Shown here: positions 1 to 10,211 of the stretch, in pieces
How positions within the stretch are numbered: the stretch's first letter is position 1
Layout of the letters: each line of letters opens with the position of its first letter
Source: Giardia intestinalis
Taxonomy: Eukaryota
Assembly: GCA_000002435.2 (NCBI GenBank)
Contig: AACB03000017.1
Strand: one strand, 5' to 3'
DNA length: 10,211 nt
The notes under the pieces: model-generated
What the model was told of the DNA's origin: nothing
The model's database searches: none
The model's input: the letters and a program-made list of their open reading frames with translations, nothing else
Made by a program: the position numbers and the translations under genes

Positions 1-663
1 CTGTTTCCCCGGTCAACGAGGTGCGTCGATGGGCCAACCTGTCCTGGCATGCTGTTTCCCGGTCAACGAGGTGCGTCGATGGGCCTAGCTGGCCCGGAGT
101 CCCATTTCCCCGGTCAACGAGGTAGTCGATGGGCCTAGCTGGCCCGGAGTCCATTTCCCCGGTCAACGAGGTATGTCGATGGGCCAGCTGGCCGGCAGTC
201 TGTTCCCCGGTCAACGAGGTGCGTCGATGGGCCAACCTGTCCTGGCATGCTGTTTCCCCGGTCAACGAGGTGCGTCGATGGGCCTAGCGGCCCGGAGTCC
301 CATTTCCCGGTCAACGAGGTGCGTCGATGGGCCTAGCTGGCCCGGAGTCCCATTTTCCCCGGTCAACGAGGTGCGTCGATGGGCCAACCTGTCCTGGCAT
401 GCTGTTTCCCCGGTCAACGAGGTGCGTCGATGGGCCTAGCTGGCCCGGAGTCCCATTTCCCCGGTCAACGAGGTATGTCGATGGGCCTAGCTGGCCCGGA
501 GTCCCATTTCCCGGTCAACGAGGTGCGTCGATGGGCCAACCTGTCCTGGCATGCTGTTTCCCCGGTCAACGAGGTGCGTCGATGGGCCTAGCTGGCCCGG
601 AGTCCCATTTCCCCGGTCAACGAGGTGCGCGATGGGCCTAGCTGCCCGGAGTCCCATTTCCCC

Positions 664-714
664 GGTCAACGAGGTGCGTCGATGGGCCAACCTGTCCTGG
701 CATGCTGTTTCCCC
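664..714. repeat. Representative subfamily-A unit (variable block 'ccaacctgtcctggcatgctgtt')
   Basis: 'ggtcaacgaggtgcgtcgatgggccaacctgtcctggcatgctgtttcccc'. This is the majority type, roughly 95 of about 148 units by hand count. Confidence 0.9.
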
Positions 715-1564
715 GGTCAACGAGGTGCGTCGATGGGCCTAGCTGGCCCGGAGTCCATTTCCCGGTCAACGAGGTGCGTCGATGGGCCAACCTGTCCTGG
801 CATGCTGTTCCCCGGTCAACGAGGTGCGTCGATGGGCCAACCTGTCCTGGCATGCTGTTTCCCCGGTCAACGAGGTGCGTCGATGGGCCTAGCTGGCCCG
901 GCATCTTTTCCCCGGTCAACGAGGTGCGTCGATGGGCCAACCTGTCCTGGCATGCTGTTCCCCGGTCAACGAGGTATGTCGATGGGCCAACCTGTCCTGG
1001 CATGCTGTTTCCCCGGTCAACGAGGTGCGTCGATGGGCCAACTGCCCGGCATCTTTCCCCGGTCAACGAGGTATGTCGATGGGCCAACCTGTCCTGGCAT
1101 GCTGTTTCCCCGGTCAACGAGGTGCGTCGATGGGCCAACCTGTCCTGGCATGCTGTTTCCCCGGTCAACGAGGTGCGTCGATGGGCCTAGCTGGCCCGGA
1201 GTCCCATTTCCCCGGTCAACGAGGTATGTCGATGGGCCTAGCTGGCCCGGAGCCCATTTCCCCGGTCAACGAGGTGCGTCGATGGGCCAACCTGTCCTGG
1301 CATGCTGTTTCCCCGGTCAACGAGGTGCGTCGATGGGCCTAGCTGGCCCGGAGTCCCATTTCCCCGGTCAACGAGGTATGTCGATGGGCCTAGCTGGCCC
1401 GGAGTCCATTTCCCCGGTCAACGAGGTGCGTCGATGGGCCTAGCTGGCCGGAGTCCCTTTCCCCGGTCAACGAGGTGTCGATGGGCCTAGCTGGCCCGGA
1501 GTCCCATTTCCCCGGTCAACGAGGTGCGTCGATGGGCCAACCTGTCCTGGCATGCTGTTTCCCC

Positions 1565-1615
1565 GGTCAACGAGGTGCGTCGATGGGCCTAGCTGGCCCG
1601 GAGTCCCATTTCCCC
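1565..1615. repeat. Representative subfamily-B unit (variable block 'cctagctggcccggagtcccatt')
   Basis: 'ggtcaacgaggtgcgtcgatgggcctagctggcccggagtcccatttcccc'. It has the same 28-bp core. The 23-bp block differs from A at about 9 of 23 positions and is colinear, so it is a diverged version and not an insertion. Confidence 0.9.
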
Positions 1616-1766
1616 GGTCAACGAGGTATGTCGATGGGCCTAGCTGGCCCGGAGTCCCATTTCCCCGGTCAACGAGGTATCGATGGGCCTAGCTGGCCCG
1701 GAGTCCCATTTCCCCGGTCAACGAGGTGCGTCGATGGGCCAACCTGTCCTGGCATGCTGTTTCCCC

Positions 1767-2782
1767 GGTCAACGAGGTGCGTCGATGGGCCTAGCTGGCC
1801 CGGAGTCCCATTTCCCCGGTCAACGAGGTGCGTCGATGGGCCAACCTGTCCTGGCATGCTGTTTCCCCGGTCAACGAGGTGCGTCGATGGGCCAACCTGT
1901 CCTGGCATGCTGTTTCCCCGGTCAACGAGGTGCGTCGATGGGCCTAGCTGGCCCGGAGTCCCATTTCCCCGGTCAACGAGGTGCGTCGATGGGCCAACCT
2001 GTCCTGGCATGCTGTTTCCCCGGTCAACGAGGTGCGTCGATGGGCCAACCTGTCCTGGCATGCTGTTTCCCCGGTCAACGAGGTGCGTCGATGGGCCAAC
2101 CTGTCCTGGCATGCTGTTTCCCCGGTCAACGAGGTGCGTCGATGGGCCAACCTGTCCTGGCATGCTGTTTCCCCGGTCAACGAGGTGTCGATGGGCCAAC
2201 CTGTCCTGGCATGCTGTTTCCCCGGTCAACGAGGTGCGTCGATGGGCCAACCTGTCCTGGCATGCTGTTTCCCCGGTCAACGAGGTGCGTCGATGGGCCT
2301 AGCTGGCCCGGAGTCCCATTTCCCCGGTCAACGAGGTGCGTCGATGGGCCAACCTGTCCTGGCATGCTGTTTCCCCGGTCAACGAGGTGCGTCGATGGGC
2401 CAACCTGTCCTGGCATGCTGTTTCCCCGGTCAACGAGGTGCGTCGATGGGCCTAGCTGGCCCGGAGTCCCATTTCCCCGGTCAACGAGGTGCGTCGATGG
2501 GCCAACCTGTCCTGGCATGCTGTTTCCCCGGTCAACGAGGTGCGTCGATGGGCCAACCTGTCCTGGCATGCTGTTTCCCCGGTCAACGAGGTGCGTCGAT
2601 GGGCCAACCTGTCCTGGCATGCTGTTTCCCCGGTCAACGAGGTGCGTCGATGGGCCAACCTGTCCTGGCATGCTGTTTCCCCGGTCAACGAGGTGTCGAT
2701 GGGCCAACCTGTCCTGGCATGCTGTTTCCCCGGTCAACGAGGTGCGTCGATGGGCCAACCTGTCCTGGCATGCTGTTTCCCC
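1767..2782. repeat. Two tandem copies of a ~508-bp, 10-unit higher-order repeat (unit order B A A B A A A A A(48-bp deletion variant) A)
   Basis: Units starting at 1767 and at 2275 have the same order of unit types, including the same rare 48-bp 'ggtgtcgatggg' variant at the ninth position (about 2175 and about 2683). The offset is 508 bp, which is 9x51 plus the shortened unit within 1 bp. The ORF track shows identical 203-aa and 78-aa translations offset by 508 (1669..2280 vs 2177..2788, and 1944..2180 vs 2452..2688). Confidence 0.8.
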
Positions 2783-5700
2783 GGTCAACGAGGTGTCGAT
2801 GGGCCAACCTGTCCTGGCATGCTGTTTCCCCGGTCAACGAGGTGCGTCGATGGGCCAACCTGTCCTGGCATGCTGTTTCCCCGGTCAACGAGGTGCGTCG
2901 ATGGGCCTAGCTGGCCCGGAGTCCCATTTCCCCGGTCAACGAGGTGCGTCGATGGGCCAACCTGTCCTGGCATGCTGTTTCCCCGGTCAACGAGGTATCG
3001 ATGGGCCAACCTGTCCTGGCATGCTGTTTCCCCGGTCAACGAGGTGCGTCGATGGGCCAACCTGTCCTGGCATGCTGTTTCCCCGGTCAACGAGGTGCGT
3101 CGATGGGCCAACCTGTCCTGGCATGCTGTTTCCCCGGTCAACGAGGTGCGTCGATGGGCCAACCTGTCCTGGCATGCTGTTTCCCCGGTCAACGAGGTAT
3201 GTCGATGGGCCTAGCTGGCCCGGAGTCCCATTTCCCCGGTCAACGAGGTATGTCGATGGGCCAACCTGTCCTGGCATGCTGTTTCCCCGGTCAACGAGGT
3301 GCGTCGATGGGCCAACCTGTCCTGGCATGCTGTTTCCCCGGTCAACGAGGTGTCGATGGGCCAACCTGTCCTGGCATGCTGTTTCCCCGGTCAACGAGGT
3401 GCGTCGATGGGCCAACCTGTCCTGGCATGCTGTTTCCCCGGTCAACGAGGTGCGTCGATGGGCCAACCTGTCCTGGCATGCTGTTTCCCCGGTCAACGAG
3501 GTATGTCGATGGGCCTAGCTGGCCCGGAGTCCCATTTCCCCGGTCAACGAGGTGCGTCGATGGGCCAACCTGTCCTGGCATGCTGTTTCCCCGGTCAACG
3601 AGGTGCGTCGATGGGCCAACCTGTCCTGGCATGCTGTTTCCCCGGTCAACGAGGTGTCGATGGGCCTAGCTGGCCCGGAGTCCCATTTCCCCGGTCAACG
3701 AGGTGCGTCGATGGGCCTAGCTGGCCGGAGTCCCATTTCCCCGGTCAACGAGGTATGTCGATGGGCCTAGCTGGCCCGGAGTCCCATTTCCCCGGTCAAC
3801 GAGGTGCGTCGATGGGCCAACCTGTCCTGGCATGCTGTTTCCCCGGTCAACGAGGTGCGTCGATGGGCCTAGCTGGCCCGGAGTCCCATTTCCCCGGTCA
3901 ACGAGGTGCGTCGATGGGCCAACCTGTCCTGGCATGCTGTTTCCCCGGTCAACGAGGTGCGTCGATGGGCCAACCTGTCCTGGCATGCTGTTTCCCCGGT
4001 CAACGAGGTGCGTCGATGGGCCAACCTGTCCTGGCATGCTGTTCCCCGGTCAACGAGGTGCGTCGATGGGCCAACCTGTCCTGGCATGCTGTTTCCCCGG
4101 TCAACGAGGTATGTCGATGGGCCTAGCTGGCCCGGAGTCCCATTTCCCCGGTCAACGAGGTGCGTCGATGGGCCAACCTGTCCTGGCATGCTGTTTCCCC
4201 GGTCAACGAGGTGCGTCGATGGGCCAACCTGTCCTGGCATGCTGTTTCCCCGGTCAACGAGGTGCGTCGATGGGCCAACCTGTCCTGGCATGCTGTTTCC
4301 CCGGTCAACGAGGTATGTCGATGGGCCTAGCTGGCCCGGAGTCCCATTTCCCCGGTCAACGAGGTGCGTCGATGGGCCAACCTGTCCTGGCATGCTGTTT
4401 CCCCGGTCAACGAGGTGCGTCGATGGGCCAACCTGTCCTGGCATGCTGTTTCCCCGGTCAACGAGGTATGTCGATGGGCCTAGCTGGCCCGGAGTCCCAT
4501 TTCCCCGGTCAACGAGGTGCGTCGATGGGCCTAGCTGGCCCGGAGTCCCATTTCCCCGGTCAACGAGGTATGTCGATGGGCCTAGCTGGCCCGGAGTCCC
4601 ATTTCCCCGGTCAACGAGGTGCGTCGATGGGCCAACCTGTCCTGGCATGCTGTTTCCCCGGTCAACGAGGTGCGTCGATGGGCCTAGCTGGCCCGGAGTC
4701 CCATTTCCCCGGTCAACGAGGTGCGTCGATGGGCCAACCTGTCCTGGCATGCTGTTTCCCCGGTCAACGAGGTGCGTCGATGGGCCAACCTGTCCTGGCA
4801 TGCTGTTTCCCCGGTCAACGAGGTGCGTCGATGGGCCAACCTGTCCTGGCATGCTGTTTCCCCGGTCAACGAGGTGCGTCGATGGGCCAACCTGTCCTGG
4901 CATGCTGTTTCCCCGGTCAACGAGGTATGTCGATGGGCCTAGCTGGCCCGGAGTCCCATTTCCCCGGTCAACGAGGTGCGTCGATGGGCCAACCTGTCCT
5001 GGCATGCTGTTTCCCCGGTCAACGAGGTGCGTCGATGGGCCAACCTGTCCTGGCATGCTGTTTCCCCGGTCAACGAGGTATGTCGATGGGCCTAGCTGGC
5101 CCGGAGTCCCATTTCCCCGGTCAACGAGGTGCGTCGATGGGCCTAGCTGGCCCGGAGTCCCATTTCCCCGGTCAACGAGGTATGTCGATGGGCCTAGCTG
5201 GCCCGGAGTCCCATTTCCCCGGTCAACGAGGTGCGTCGATGGCCAACCTGTCCTGGCATGCGTTCCCGGTCACGAGGTGCGTCGATGGGCCAACCTGTCC
5301 TGGCATGCTGTTTCCCGGTCAACGAGGTGCGTCGATGGGCCAACCTGTCCTGGCATGCTGTTTCCCCGGTCAACGAGGTATGTCGATGGGCCTAGCTGGC
5401 CCGGAGTCCCATTTCCCCGGTCAACGAGGTGCGTCGATGGGCCAACCTGTCCTGGCATGCTGTTTCCCCGGTCACGAGGTCGCTAGCTGGCCCGGAGTCC
5501 CATTTCCCCGGTCAACGAGGTATGTCGATGGGCCTAGCTGGCCCGGAGTCCCATTTCCCCGGTCAACGAGGTGCGTCGATGGGCCAACCTGTCCTGGCAT
5601 GCTGTTTCCCCGGTCAACGAGGTGCGTCGATGGGCCAACCTGTCCTGGCATGCTGTTTCCCCGGTCAACGAGGTGCGTCGATGGGCCAACCTGTCCTGGC

Positions 5701-7538
5701 ATGCTGTTTCCCCGGTCAACGAGGTATGTCGATGGGCCTAGCTGGCCCGGAGTCCCATTTCCCCGGTCAACGAGGTGCGTCGATGGGCCAACCTGTCCTG
5801 GCATGCTGTTTCCCCGGTCAACGAGGTATGTCGATGGGCCTAGCTGGCCCGGAGTCCCATTTCCCCGGTCAACGAGGTGCGTCGATGGGCCAACCTGTCC
5901 TGGCATGCTGTTTCCCCGGTCAACGAGGTGCGTCGATGGGCCAACCTGTCCTGGCATGCTGTTTCCCGGTCAACGAGGTATGTCGATGGGCCTAGCTGGC
6001 CCGGAGTCCCATTTCCCCGGTCAACGAGGTGCGTCGATGGGCCTAGCTGGCCCGGAGTCCCATTTCCCCGGTCAACGAGGTGCGTCGATGGGCCTAGCTG
6101 GCCCGGAGTCCCATTTCCCCGGTCAACGAGGTGCGTCGATGGGCCAACCTGTCCTGGCATGCTGTTTCCCCGGTCAACGAGGTGCGTCGATGGGCCAACC
6201 TGTCCTGGCATGCTGTTTCCCCGGTCAACGAGGTGCGTCGATGGGCCAACCTGTCCTGGCATGCTGTTTCCCCGGTCAACGAGGTATGTCGATGGGCCTA
6301 GCTGGCCCGGAGTCCCATTTCCCCGGTCAACGAGGTGCGTCGATGGGCCAACCTGTCCTGGCATGCTGTTTCCCCGGTCAACGAGGTATGTCGATGGGCC
6401 AACCTGTCCTGGCATGCTGTTTCCCCGGTCAACGAGGTGCGTCGATGGGCCAACCTGTCCTGGCATGCTGTTTCCCCGGTCAACGAGGTGCGTCGATGGG
6501 CCAACCTGTCCTGGCATGCTGTTTCCCCGGTCAACGAGGTATGTCGATGGGCCAACCTGTCCTGGCATGCTGTTTCCCCGGTCAACGAGGTGCGTCGATG
6601 GGCCAACCTGTCCTGGCATGCTGTTTCCCCGGTCAACGAGGTATGTCGATGGGCCAACCTGTCCTGGCATGCTGTTTCCCCGGTCAACGAGGTATGTCGA
6701 TGGGCCTAGCTGGCCCGGAGTCCCATTTCCCCGGTCAACGAGGTATGTCGATGGGCCTAGCTGGCCCGGAGTCCCATTTCCCCGGTCAACGAGGTGCGTC
6801 GATGGGCCAACCTGTCCTGGCATGCTGTTTCCCCGGTCAACGAGGTGCGTCGATGGGCCAACCTGTCCTGGCATGCTGTTTCCCCGGTCAACGAGGTGCG
6901 TCGATGGGCCAACCTGTCCTGGCATGCTGTTTCCCCGGTCAACGAGGTATGTCGATGGGCCTAGCTGGCCCGGAGTCCCATTTCCCCGGTCAACGAGGTA
7001 TGTCGATGGGCCTAGCTGGCCCGGAGTCCCATTTCCCCGGTCAACGAGGTGCGTCGATGGGCCAACCTGTCCTGGCATGCTGTTTCCCCGGTCAACGAGG
7101 TGCGTCGATGGGCCAACCTGTCCTGGCATGCTGTTTCCCCGGTCAACGAGGTGCGTCGATGGGCCAACCTGTCCTGGCATGCTGTTTCCCCGGTCAACGA
7201 GGTGCGTCGATGGGCCAACCTGTCCTGGCATGCTGTTTCCCCGGTCAACGAGGTATGTCGATGGGCCAACCTGTCCTGGCATGCTGTTTCCCCGGTCAAC
7301 GAGGTGCGTCGATGGGCCAACCTGTCCTGGCATGCTGTTTCCCCGGTCAACGAGGTGCGTCGATGGGCCAACCTGTCCTGGCATGCTGTTTCCCCGGTCA
7401 ACGAGGTGCGTCGATGGGCCAACCTGTCCTGGCATGCTGTTTCCCCGGTCAACGAGGTGCGTCGATGGGCCAACCTGTCCTGGCATGCTGTTTCCCCGGT
7501 CAACGAGGTGCGTCGATGGGCCAACCTGTCCTGGCATG

Positions 7539-9583
7539 ATATCTATCTGAGACTTATCATTACTATACTTAGGTGGCATATTATATGTTCCTTTAACTAG
7601 ATAATGATTCAGATTAGAAACATTTTGGGCTCCAATGTCATAATAGCTAGATTGCTGATTCTTTTGATGACTCACTGAATTTTGCATCAAGGAGCAATTG
7701 ACACCCTTATCAACAAGCACTTGATTAATTTCGCAAGTAGAACCATTGTGAATAAATGCACCATCGTTTAAATCTCCGCTTAGATTTGTAGACGGATCAG
7801 CTAATGATTTAACACTCAAATGCTCCTCTTTCCATGCTACATGGCTTGATTGCTGGCTTAGGACTTCCGCCTCCCTCTGCGATTCGTACTGCATACTGGG
7901 ATCTTTGGCTTGTAAAACACTTCTGTTGCTAAGGTAATTAAGCTCAGGTGTGTAACCACTTAATTGGCGTGTGTTTTCATTTGGCAAAGTATCATACAAT
8001 GTGCTATCTTTAACAGAGAAAAGAGAGCTGTTATCTCCCCTATACCCTTGCTGGTTAGATACGCTTAGCTCCCGAGCGCCGGAGATACTTATGGTATTGT
8101 AAGGTGTATTGTCTTCATGAGATAGCTCCTTCACAGTCTCGTTTTCTCCCGGTTCTGGGTTAACAAGTGTGCTATAGCTCAAACCCCGTGCATGAGACGC
8201 CGTGATGGTAACATCATAAGGTGCTGATGGTGAAACCTGTGAACGCACGGGAAGATTTGGATCCCAACAATAGCTATGATCATACGGTGATACTGCTGTT
8301 AGAGGGGTGTTTATTTCTGACGTACTAATGTCGGACCTATCTGGCTTCTGCATCAATGTATTCTTATACTCCGTTGTATTATAAGTTGCTCTCTTCGTTT
8401 GTCGTGTGTAATCAGTCATATCATGGATTGTCTCAGCCTTGTCGTCTGGGCGCGCAGGGAATGTGTCTCCTGGCTTTCCGTATGCATAGCTCAGTACGCG
8501 GGCGCTTTTTACTAAAATCGGCCCGTCATTTCTATAAGGCGTGAGCCCCATATCGCTTCCAACTAGATTAGTTTCCATATCAGAAAAGATATCCTTCTGT
8601 GTTTTCTCTTTGTAGTCTTTTACGAGTTTATTCTCGTCTAACAATTCTTCTCTTGTTTGTGCTACCTTCTCCAGTTTATCTTTCCAATAGTTAGCCCATG
8701 ATATGTCGTCAGAAATAGTGACGGGCAGTGTTCCTGAAGTAGTACTGAGAACATTCTGTGTGTCTCCAGCCACAATTGCTGTGGGCATTGTAGCCAGCAG
8801 TGTTGCATTAGGTGTAAGTGCTATCTTCTTAGTGTCTTCAGATAACTGTACTTGGTGATCAATTGCGGTTGATTTCCCCGGTTCTATTGAATTACTTACA
8901 TTCCTAAATAATGTCTGTAAATTGCTTGTTGCAGCGGCACTATATCCATAGTTCTCTGGGCAGGTATTACTGTAATCGTTAGATTTGAATGTCTGCTGCT
9001 GAGACTTTGTCGCTACTAATTGATCTTGTGGAGCAGGTTTCGAAGAAGCTAAGTTGCCATATTGAGATTGGTGTAATGGGACAGTGATAAGGGGGTCTTG
9101 CTGAGATTTCGTCCAGTATGCCGGTGCTTTGGAAACCTGGCTTCGTAGGCTTTCAAACGCGGAGGGGAGCTGAGGAGGAGGCACGATGGGGCCGTGCTCC
9201 TTCAAATAGTCACGGTACACAGACCATGCTTTATGTATTCGTGGATGCTTGAGTAACTCATCTGCAGGAGGACGACTCCTGGGGTTATGATCGAGAAGCA
9301 GATTAATTATTCTGGTTAGCTCTGCACTGTAGCCGTGATATGATGTCTTTACAAAGGAACTGAGAGATTGTATGGCTTCCTGCTTGTTGGCACATGTCTC
9401 TCTGTACCGGCGAAGCGTGCACATTTCGTGTAGTACACATCCTAACATGAACATGTCGACCTTCGCCCCATACTTATGCCCCAAGAGCATTTCAGGCGCC
9501 ATGTAAACATAATCGCCAACCTGTTCAGAGATCTCAGACGCCTGACTCAAAGAGACTGCTTGACGCATACCGCCTAAAACCAC
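7539..9583 (-). CDS. Segment 3 of NEK-like kinase homolog: activation segment, C-lobe (subdomains VII to XI) and a ~560-aa low-complexity tail; the open frame continues into the satellite to 5840
   Basis: The ORF-track entry 5840..9583 begins at a GTG, which is an ORF-caller artefact; the frame is open from the stop at 9593-9595. 'VVLGGMRQAVSLSQASEISEQVGDYVYMAPE' has A-P-E at 9491-9499. 'DMFMLGCVLHEMCTL' is subdomain IX, close to NEK 'GCVLYELCTL'. 'HNPRSRPPADELLKHPRI' is subdomain XI. The unique part ends at 7539, and the last unique codons read ...KSQIDI before the repeat. Confidence 0.75.
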
Positions 9584-9660
9584 GCTGTGTTGTTAGACAA
9601 GAATATGGTTTCTGGACGTATGTTTCGATGAATTACTATTCCGACTTCGGGACAATTCAA
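9574..9660 (-). other. Catalytic-loop segment of the same kinase, encoded in a different minus-strand frame: 'LNCPEVGIVIHRNIRPETIFLSNNTAWF'
   Basis: Hand translation of the minus strand between the two ORF-track ORFs. The H-R-N codons are at 9622-9630. They align to the kinase HRDLKPENIFL catalytic loop, with D->N, K->R and N->T. The segment is bounded by a stop immediately upstream (minus-strand 'taa' at plus 9661-9663) and 'tag' at 9574-9576, so it joins the flanking segments only if a 1-nt shift is assumed at each end. Confidence 0.6.
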
Positions 9661-10061
9661 TTATAAGGTGAATGTAGGTAGGCAAGCACATCGCAGAGCT
9701 GGGCAAGAACCATCCAAATAGTGCTTTCGTCATAGAGATGCGCAGCCTCAAATCTGTCAACGATTTGCTGCCGTAAGCTCTGGCTTAAATATGCATCCAT
9801 GAAGACATAGTACGTGTGGCGGAACTGGTCGTGGAAAACATTATGAATCTGAAGAATTCCTGGGTGCTGAAGTCTCTGTGTTAGTTGATACTGTCGATCT
9901 ACATGCTCTCGAAGAGTAGTTGCAGATTGAGTGTAGTCTATAACTTTGCAGACAACGTCGTGTGAGGTCCACGTATCGTGCGCCCAATGAATCCTAGAAT
10001 GCTGCCCATGGGTAAGAAGAGGCCCAAGGCGGTACCTATCCATCAGGAGAGTCGTGAGCAT
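9657..10061 (-). CDS. Exon/segment 1 of NEK (NIMA-related)-like protein kinase homolog: N-lobe, kinase subdomains I to VIa; frame is interrupted at its 3' end
   Basis: 134-aa ORF. 'YRLGPLLTHGQHSRI' aligns to the NEK G-loop region but lacks GxGxxG. 'VVCKVIDY' corresponds to the VAIK lysine plus the NEK-typical K-E-L-D-Y context. 'HPGILQIHNVF' is subdomain IV, 'YYVFMDAY' is the hinge, and 'LAQLCDVLAYLHS' is subdomain VIa. It is the first in-frame ATG after an upstream stop, 4 codons upstream. The ORF stops 'TGA' at 9657-9659 immediately before the catalytic loop. Confidence 0.8.
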   Translation of the reverse strand: MLTTLLMDRYRLGPLLTHGQHSRIHWAHDTWTSHDVVCKVIDYTQSATTLREHVDRQYQLTQRLQHPGILQIHNVFHDQFRHTYYVFMDAYLSQSLRQQIVDRFEAAHLYDESTIWMVLAQLCDVLAYLHSPYN

Positions 10062-10211
10062 TGAGAGGCAAATTTAAGAATAAATTTACTCATTTGGATA
10101 GCATCATCGACGAATTGAGACATATATGGTGTTTTGACACTAAATACAGAAGAATCAAGCCAATTTCTTTTCAAGATAGGCGATGCTTGAGCAGAATTGT
10201 TGTCTTGTTCT
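10062..10211 (-). promoter_or_regulatory. AT-rich 5' flank of the kinase gene; possible core promoter, with a TATA-like 'catatatg' at about 10121-10128
   Basis: On the minus strand the sequence immediately upstream of the ATG is 'aaatgagtaaatttattcttaaatttgcctctca', which is AT-rich. 'atatat' lies about 62 nt upstream of the ATG. This is suggestive only. No organism-specific promoter model was applied. Confidence 0.2.

Follow-up and report, generated by a model that had tools for sequence, protein, structure and literature searches.

A Nek pseudokinase gene of Giardia intestinalis, split over three reading frames in one assembly, is very probably intact

Results

A Nek gene read in three frames

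The window, by which we mean the whole 10,211-nucleotide stretch of DNA analysed here, carries on its minus strand the Giardia intestinalis gene GL50803_114469 (GK273; assemblage A, WB-type). Its kinase domain, at 9,574-10,061, is spread across three reading frames, with a 51-nt tandem array, which encodes C-terminal repeats of 17 residues, on one side and the tail of another Nek gene, GL50803_13964 (GK196), on the upstream side (Table 1). GL50803_114469 has been classed as Other/Nek/Nek-Unclassified and annotated as "Dead Nek - missing D166, D184" (Manning et al. 2011, Genome Biol 12:R66, Additional file 1; PMC3218828). The gene, its dead-kinase status and the occurrence of frameshift artefacts in Giardia long-read assemblies are already known. 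A text search of indexed papers for the gene ID returned no occurrence.

Table 1. Features of the window, in minus-strand reading order, followed by the three deletion sites.
Feature	Position	Strand	Description	Basis
Frame 1, kinase N-lobe	9657..10061	-	134 codons from ATG 10061-10059; ...LAYLHSPYN, then very probably artefactual TGA 9659-9657	ORF list and translation
Frame 2, catalytic-loop segment	9574..9660	-	LNCPEVGIVIHRNIRPETIFLSNNTA(WF-stop); very probably artefactual TAG 9576-9574	aligns to the HRD...N loop of NEK1/NEK2
Frame 3, kinase C-lobe	5840..9583	-	C-lobe, unique tail of ~560 residues and first 31 repeat units	
51-nt tandem array	1..7538	-	~149 units encoding MPGQVGPSTHLVDRGNS and variants; runs off window start	TRF and unit-by-unit analysis
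First array defect	5965..5967		minus GGGG read GGG in unit 30 (length 50); ORF passes to the -1 repeat frame and stops at 5840	
Deletion site 1	9661..9662		tt on the plus strand, ttt in every other assembly; minus Lys codon AAA read AA	
Deletion site 2	9580..9581		one base lost between two C's; plus ACACAC read AC-CAC, minus GTGTG read GTG-G; non-homopolymer	
Deletion site 3	10093..10095		plus ttt where others have tttt (minus AAAA read AAA); tail of upstream gene	alignments

An earlier account of this DNA, made from its letters and open reading frames and called here the sequence-only reading, had the N-lobe frame stopping at TGA 9657-9659, the catalytic-loop frame stopping at TAG 9574-9576 and the C-lobe frame opening after the stop at 9593-9595. 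The ORF list and the translations place all three exactly there. The catalytic-loop frame opens after TAA 9661-9663 and reads LNCPEVGIVIHRNIRPETIFLSNNTAWF up to its TAG. The C-lobe frame, open after the TAA at 9593-9595, reads VVLGGMRQAVSL... through 1,247 codons; the start listed for this ORF is a GTG, which only the bacterial code permits. The N-lobe frame is identical to residues 1-133 both of the intact product encoded by short-read contigs and of WB GL50803_114469 (Manning et al. 2011, Additional file 1), and the C-lobe frame is identical to the short-read contigs as far as the start of the array. The split into three frames is not a matter of chance, because the joined reading forms one Pkinase stretch that is collinear with intact orthologues. 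An intron was considered and rejected, the middle segment coding for the conserved catalytic loop in a frame of its own.

The joined (repaired) protein matched Pfam Pkinase PF00069 without interruption from residue 15 to residue 274 (profile positions 6-261 of 263, E = 1.5e-29), scoring 103.7 bits against a gathering cut-off of 31.7. Its best PDB matches were human NEK1 and NEK2 (4apc, 4a4x, 2w5a; E = 1.7e-21 and 1.5e-20), which, together with the 2011 classification and the name "Kinase, NEK" given by NCBI to the orthologue from strain P15, place it in the Nek family. The Giardia protein could be aligned with NEK1 and NEK2 across the entire domain and retains the VAIK lysine and the APE motif. 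The active site differs at four places: HRN stands for HRD, Arg for the loop Lys, Thr for the Mg-binding Asn and GGM for DFG. In PKA numbering, of the three residues expected of a competent kinase, K72 is kept (VVCKV), whereas D166 is an Asn (HRN) and D184 a Gly (LGGM for LGDFG), in agreement with the "Dead Nek" description of 2011. Because of these four replacements the protein is predicted from its sequence to be catalytically inactive. The proteins of assemblages A, E and B have the active-site changes in common.

The frame is continuous in the other sequences of the locus

Contigs for comparison were reached through the protein cluster of the upstream neighbour, which includes the WB proteins XP_001704159.1 / KAE8302701.1 (GL50803_13964), and those encoding its members were fetched; 16 further contigs were collapsed as carrying mostly the same neighbouring proteins. 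Nine de novo contigs (L004-L012) came from nine runs: SRR26411002, SRR22734121, SRR1957175, SRR13990249, SRR3177759, SRR13990248, SRR3177744, SRR3177768 and DRR745022. They match the minus strand of the window across 897-2,703 nt, eight of them without a substitution and L010 with one, and all end at the start of the array. Against them the window has three 1-nt gaps, at 10093-10095, at 9661-9662 and between 9580 and 9581; the only other differences are the L010 substitution and a deletion of L007's own. In eight of the nine, gene calling gives a single open product (249-851 aa) that extends as far as the end of the contig, within the repeat. In L007 the contig's own 1-nt deletion, which lies elsewhere in the gene, breaks the product into pieces of 413 and 423 aa. 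A tenth contig, L003, from a different assemblage-A strain (13 SNPs), is intact at all three sites. Two orthologues are likewise intact, the "Kinase, NEK" of Giardia lamblia P15 (assemblage E; 84% identity, 949 aa) and a serine/threonine kinase of Giardia duodenalis assemblage B (76% identity, 894 aa). The sequence-only reading had proposed that the same indels be sought in independent isolates; they are absent from the other assemblage-A contigs and from the assemblage E and B orthologues.

Recoding was considered as an alternative, whereby programmed ribosomal frameshifting, transcriptional slippage or RNA editing would bypass the shifts and a full-length protein would still be made. In its favour, the two shifts in the kinase gene have the same sign and the joined reading gives a complete kinase domain. 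A recoding signal should be conserved, yet the other strains and both orthologues have one continuous frame, and a third lesion of the same kind affects the final codons of the neighbouring gene, for which recoding would be pointless. We know of no such recoding mechanism in Giardia. Recoding or editing was rejected, the DNA being intact in all other sequences of the locus compared here, and we regard it as extremely improbable.

Three bases are missing, one of them from the neighbouring gene

Alignment of the window with the assemblage E and B orthologues gave three single-base gaps. The two frameshifts described by the sequence-only reading are both present in the sequence; the 1-nt deletion at 10093-10095 was not among them. 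Judged against the ten assemblage-A contigs and the two orthologues, the true sites do fall inside the intervals to which that reading had confined the shifts (9657-9663 and 9574-9592). The repairs themselves have to be placed differently.

At site 1, the proposed lengthening of the plus-strand aa at 9659-9660 would give ...SPYNLNCPEV.... The alignment reads TATAAATTG in L001-L012 and TAT-AATTG in the window, so that what is missing is a T of the plus strand, from the tt at 9661-9662; its return restores the Lys codon AAA and ...SPYKLNCPEV.... At site 2, lengthening the plus-strand aaaa at 9576-9579 had been expected to yield ...NNTAWFLGGMRQ.... Here L004-L012 read GCGTGTGTTTTAGG and the window GCGTG-GTTTTAGG, the orthologues having TGTATT; the missing base is a plus-strand A between C9580 and C9581 (minus T; plus ...aaaac[a]cacgc...), which restores ...NNTACVLGGMRQ... 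and the affected peptide ...TACVLGG.... Neither base therefore falls in a plus-strand A run as had been supposed, the first being a T and the second an A that sits between C's, beside the aaaa and outside it. The corrected peptide across the two sites, ...HSPYKLNCPEVGIVIHRNIRPETIFLSNNTACVLGGMRQ..., exactly matches the 2011 WB protein, which derives from the earlier assembly and has K and CV at the two positions.

Site 3 lies about 430 nt upstream of the other two, and the three deletions together span 515 nt. It shifts the last two codons of GL50803_13964, changing the end of the protein from ...AIQNE to ...AIQMSKFILKFASQCSRLS before the stop and overrunning the ATG of GL50803_114469. All members of the assemblage-A cluster of this upstream protein that reach the C-terminus end in ...FVDDAIQNE. 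The intact upstream product was found in 73 blocks of a collection of ~15 billion catalogued proteins, from which the frameshifted products, namely the N-lobe of 134 aa and the tail-extended upstream protein, were absent.

The gene is under purifying selection

Across three pairwise comparisons among assemblages A, E and B, pN/pS, taken from uncorrected proportions, ranged from 0.09 to 0.10 over the kinase domain and from 0.21 to 0.28 over the unique tail; synonymous sites are saturated between A and B, where Jukes-Cantor dN/dS is unusable. GL50803_114469 behaves as a conserved pseudokinase under strong purifying selection and not as a decaying gene.

These values bear on the choice that the sequence-only reading had left undecided, between under-calls in an intact gene and slippage mutations in a dying one. 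An established assemblage-A pseudogene might have explained why a homology search with the repaired protein returned the assemblage E and B orthologues only and no assemblage-A protein, an absence that is better explained by the protein being missing from the database searched or withheld there, its sequence being published. Against such a pseudogene stand the frame open across both sites in ten assemblage-A contigs, the intact WB model of GL50803_114469 (Manning et al. 2011) and the pN/pS of 0.09 between A and E. Nor do substitutions accompany the indels, as relaxed selection would have it: 2.7 kb are free of them relative to the WB-type contigs. None of the lesions recurs in the same strain type, whether in the nine contigs, the 2011 WB protein or the protein catalogue. 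The contigs and the WB protein refute an established pseudogene, which we consider very improbable. Because the locus is intact in nine contigs, in the WB protein and in the assemblage E and B orthologues, and is under purifying selection, an intact gene is strongly favoured.

The repeat array shows a deletion-dominated pattern of defects

Each unit of the 51-nt array was compared with the perfect unit closest to it. Over its first 30 units (~1.5 kb) the array is perfect; deeper units carry defects, nearly all of them deletions, and the remaining ~6 kb hold 62 deleted bases, one inserted base and three mismatches. In nine of the events 2 nt are lost at, or in overlap with, the one dinucleotide at which the unit is dimorphic (GACGCACC or GACATACC, here GACACC or GATACC). 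Most of the remaining events sit in GGGG, AAA, CCC and GGG runs, and some at non-homopolymer positions. Losses of two bases just where the repeat variants differ suggest a consensus of mixed or misaligned reads rather than divergence, and 7.5 kb of near-identical 51-mers were probably obtainable from long reads only.

Two further observations concern the length of the array and of its product. At about 149 units, a minimum since it runs off the window start, the array is about ten times longer than in the 2011 model of GL50803_114469, which was noted with "15 copies" of the repeat (Manning et al. 2011, PMC3218828). The stop at 5840 is made by a 1-nt deletion in the array, and the true protein may therefore continue across the entire array; should the frame be open throughout, it would be longer than about 3,300 residues.

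Discussion

The lesions that split GL50803_114469 are, in our judgement, very probably single-base deletions introduced when the consensus of this assembly was made, in a gene that is itself intact. They are private to one assembly when set against the contigs, the protein catalogue and the 2011 WB protein, and the sequence that carries them has an indel-dominated, deletion-biased spectrum in the array and in the unique region. In the unique region, relative to contigs free of substitutions, there are three deletions, no insertions and no substitutions, and one deletion belongs to a different gene from the other two. We infer that the cause was an error of consensus or polishing. The assembly would most likely be a long-read one in which polishing failed locally and left the three 1-nt deletions behind.

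A simple error of this kind is not without difficulty. The deletions cluster within 515 nt and the next 3.6 kb are clean (2.0 kb of unique sequence and the first 1.5 kb of the array), where the local error rate would predict well over ten errors. Because a uniform rate would not give clustered deletions, it must be assumed that the rate was locally raised, perhaps because coverage was low, contigs were joined or short-read polishing failed. No homopolymer is present at site 2, and that of site 1 is just a 3-mer, which fits a classic long-homopolymer under-call poorly. Of the homopolymer under-calls offered by the sequence-only reading, the assembly error can be kept, while the homopolymer label fits loosely at best; deletion-biased consensus error describes the lesions better.

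The deletions could also be real and private to the material sequenced, either as recent mutations of a clone or on a single copy (one of the four of the genome, or a duplicate of the locus) that the assembler happened to report, so that this copy of the gene would be a very young pseudogene. The lesions are unambiguous in the sequence, Nek genes turn over among Giardia strains, and WB is reported to have 30 kinase pseudogenes (PMC3218828). Such a reading may draw further on the way the comparison contigs were made, in a de Bruijn-graph pipeline whose bubble popping may hide a minority allele or a minor duplicate copy with the deletions. It would, however, call for three independent 1-nt deletions within 515 nt, one of them in a different gene, with no substitutions over 2.7 kb, next to an array with the same deletion-dominated spectrum and its 62 deleted bases. 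None of 24 contigs and no catalogued protein has any of the three variants. Moreover, 29 of the 30 WB kinase pseudogenes belong to subfamily GL4, whereas GL50803_114469 is a stable 1:1:1 orthologue outside GL4. Real, private deletions thus seem to us unlikely. Were they real, in a clone or on one of four genome copies, a constrained dead Nek would have been caught at the moment of its inactivation, and the neighbour GL50803_13964 would gain a 17-residue C-terminal extension.

On the preferred reading, that of consensus deletions in an intact gene, the frameshifts themselves bring no new biology. The gene is best annotated as intact, with three bases restored at the locus, and the frameshifts are best not recorded as a real biological feature. 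As the sequence stands, annotation would turn a conserved gene into fragments or a pseudogene, extend its neighbour falsely at the C-terminus and shorten the repeat-bearing ORF; counts of Nek pseudogenes, construct design and peptide mapping based on it would go astray. Residual deletion errors in this assembly reach beyond long homopolymers and repeats.

The closest known counterpart is the 2011 WB gene model. The repaired window protein is identical to it, the N-terminus MLTTLLMDRYRLG... and the segment ...SPYKLNCPEVGIVIHRNIRPETIFLSNNTACVLGGMRQ... agreeing in both, and the repeat MPGQVGPSTHLVDRGNS and the upstream neighbour GL50803_13964 (GK196) are common to the two; unlike that model, the window has two 1-nt deletions within the kinase domain. 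The genuine kinase pseudogenes of WB, 30 in number with 29 in Nek subfamily GL4 (Manning et al. 2011, PMC3218828), resemble the window gene in having a Nek kinase domain broken by frame disruptions. The window gene differs from them in lying outside GL4, in its strong purifying selection and in having lesions that no other sequence of the same strain type shows.

Errors of a comparable kind have been described for Giardia. In a long-read assembly of WB, PacBio homopolymer errors had cut short full-length genes, and Illumina reads served to correct 85 indels across 38 genes (Xu et al. 2020, Sci Data 7:38; PMC7000408). Nanopore-plus-Pilon hybrid assemblies exist as well, for WB and for a beaver isolate (Pollo et al. 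2020). In the PacBio assembly as in the window, single-base indels truncate otherwise full-length genes. The errors there were homopolymer errors, whereas site 2 of the window lies outside any homopolymer. Short reads revealed and corrected those lesions, and the lesions in the window likewise vanish in assemblies of other runs.

Single-base deletions outside the kinase domain

Besides the two deletions in the kinase domain, a third 1-nt deletion lies in the upstream Nek gene GL50803_13964 (Table). Through this loss the C-terminus of the encoded protein changes from ...AIQNE* to ...AIQMSKFILKFASQCSRLS*, and the ORF thus extended overlaps the ATG of GL50803_114469. A 1-nt deletion was also detected in one of the WB-type comparison contigs, L007 (run SRR13990249), to which it is private; there GL50803_114469 is split in two, with products of 413 aa and 423 aa. 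L009, the contig from the sister run SRR13990248, lacks this deletion. The L007 deletion is an error specific to its run or, alternatively, a variant truly present in that sample.

Coordinates of the deletions, the stop of the long ORF and the repeat array
Feature	Position	Detail
Third 1-nt deletion	window 10093-10095	plus-strand ttt versus tttt in all other sequences; last codons of GL50803_13964
1-nt deletion private to L007 (SRR13990249)	L007:5751 (window-equivalent 8879)	GGGG read as GGG
1-nt deletion in repeat unit 30	window 5965-5967	GGGG read as GGG
Stop of long ORF	window 5840-5842	after frame change in unit 30
51-nt tandem array	window 1-7538	~149 units; continues past window start

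GL50803_114469 is intact in a second assemblage-A strain as well. The contig from run SRR18693200 (L003:8332-11037) differs from the window and the WB-type contigs by 13 substitutions over 2.7 kb (0.5%), among them His18Asn in the N-lobe, and SRR18693200 is a different assemblage-A strain.

The annotated C-termini and the repeat array

The long ORF ends where it does because, after the deletion in repeat unit 30, the repeats are read in their -1 frame (ETACQDRLAHRRTSLTG). This deletion is probably another consensus error, in which case the annotated C-terminus would be artefactual. Across window 1-5967, the defects in the array are nearly all deletions, with 62 bases deleted versus 1 inserted, and their density rises toward the window start. 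Nine of them each remove 2 nt, either at the unit's one dimorphic dinucleotide or overlapping it, which suggests that consensus calling merged a mixture of repeat variants.

The assemblage E (P15) orthologue, as annotated (protein P0001; C-terminus at L001:8600-8952), likewise enters the -1 repeat frame (...GETACRARWVRPRTSLIGETAC...), in its case after 4-5 units and about 100 nt short of the end of its contig. Given this slip, the C-terminus published for P15 is probably artefactual, arising from an array that was collapsed or contains errors.

In the array of GL50803_114469 the perfect units are of eight types, which combine three dimorphic segments (QV/QL, H/Y and NS-M/NG-T). An array that stays in frame over its whole length would give a protein of more than ~3,300 residues; for the same WB gene, 15 repeat copies have been given (Manning 2011, PMC3218828).
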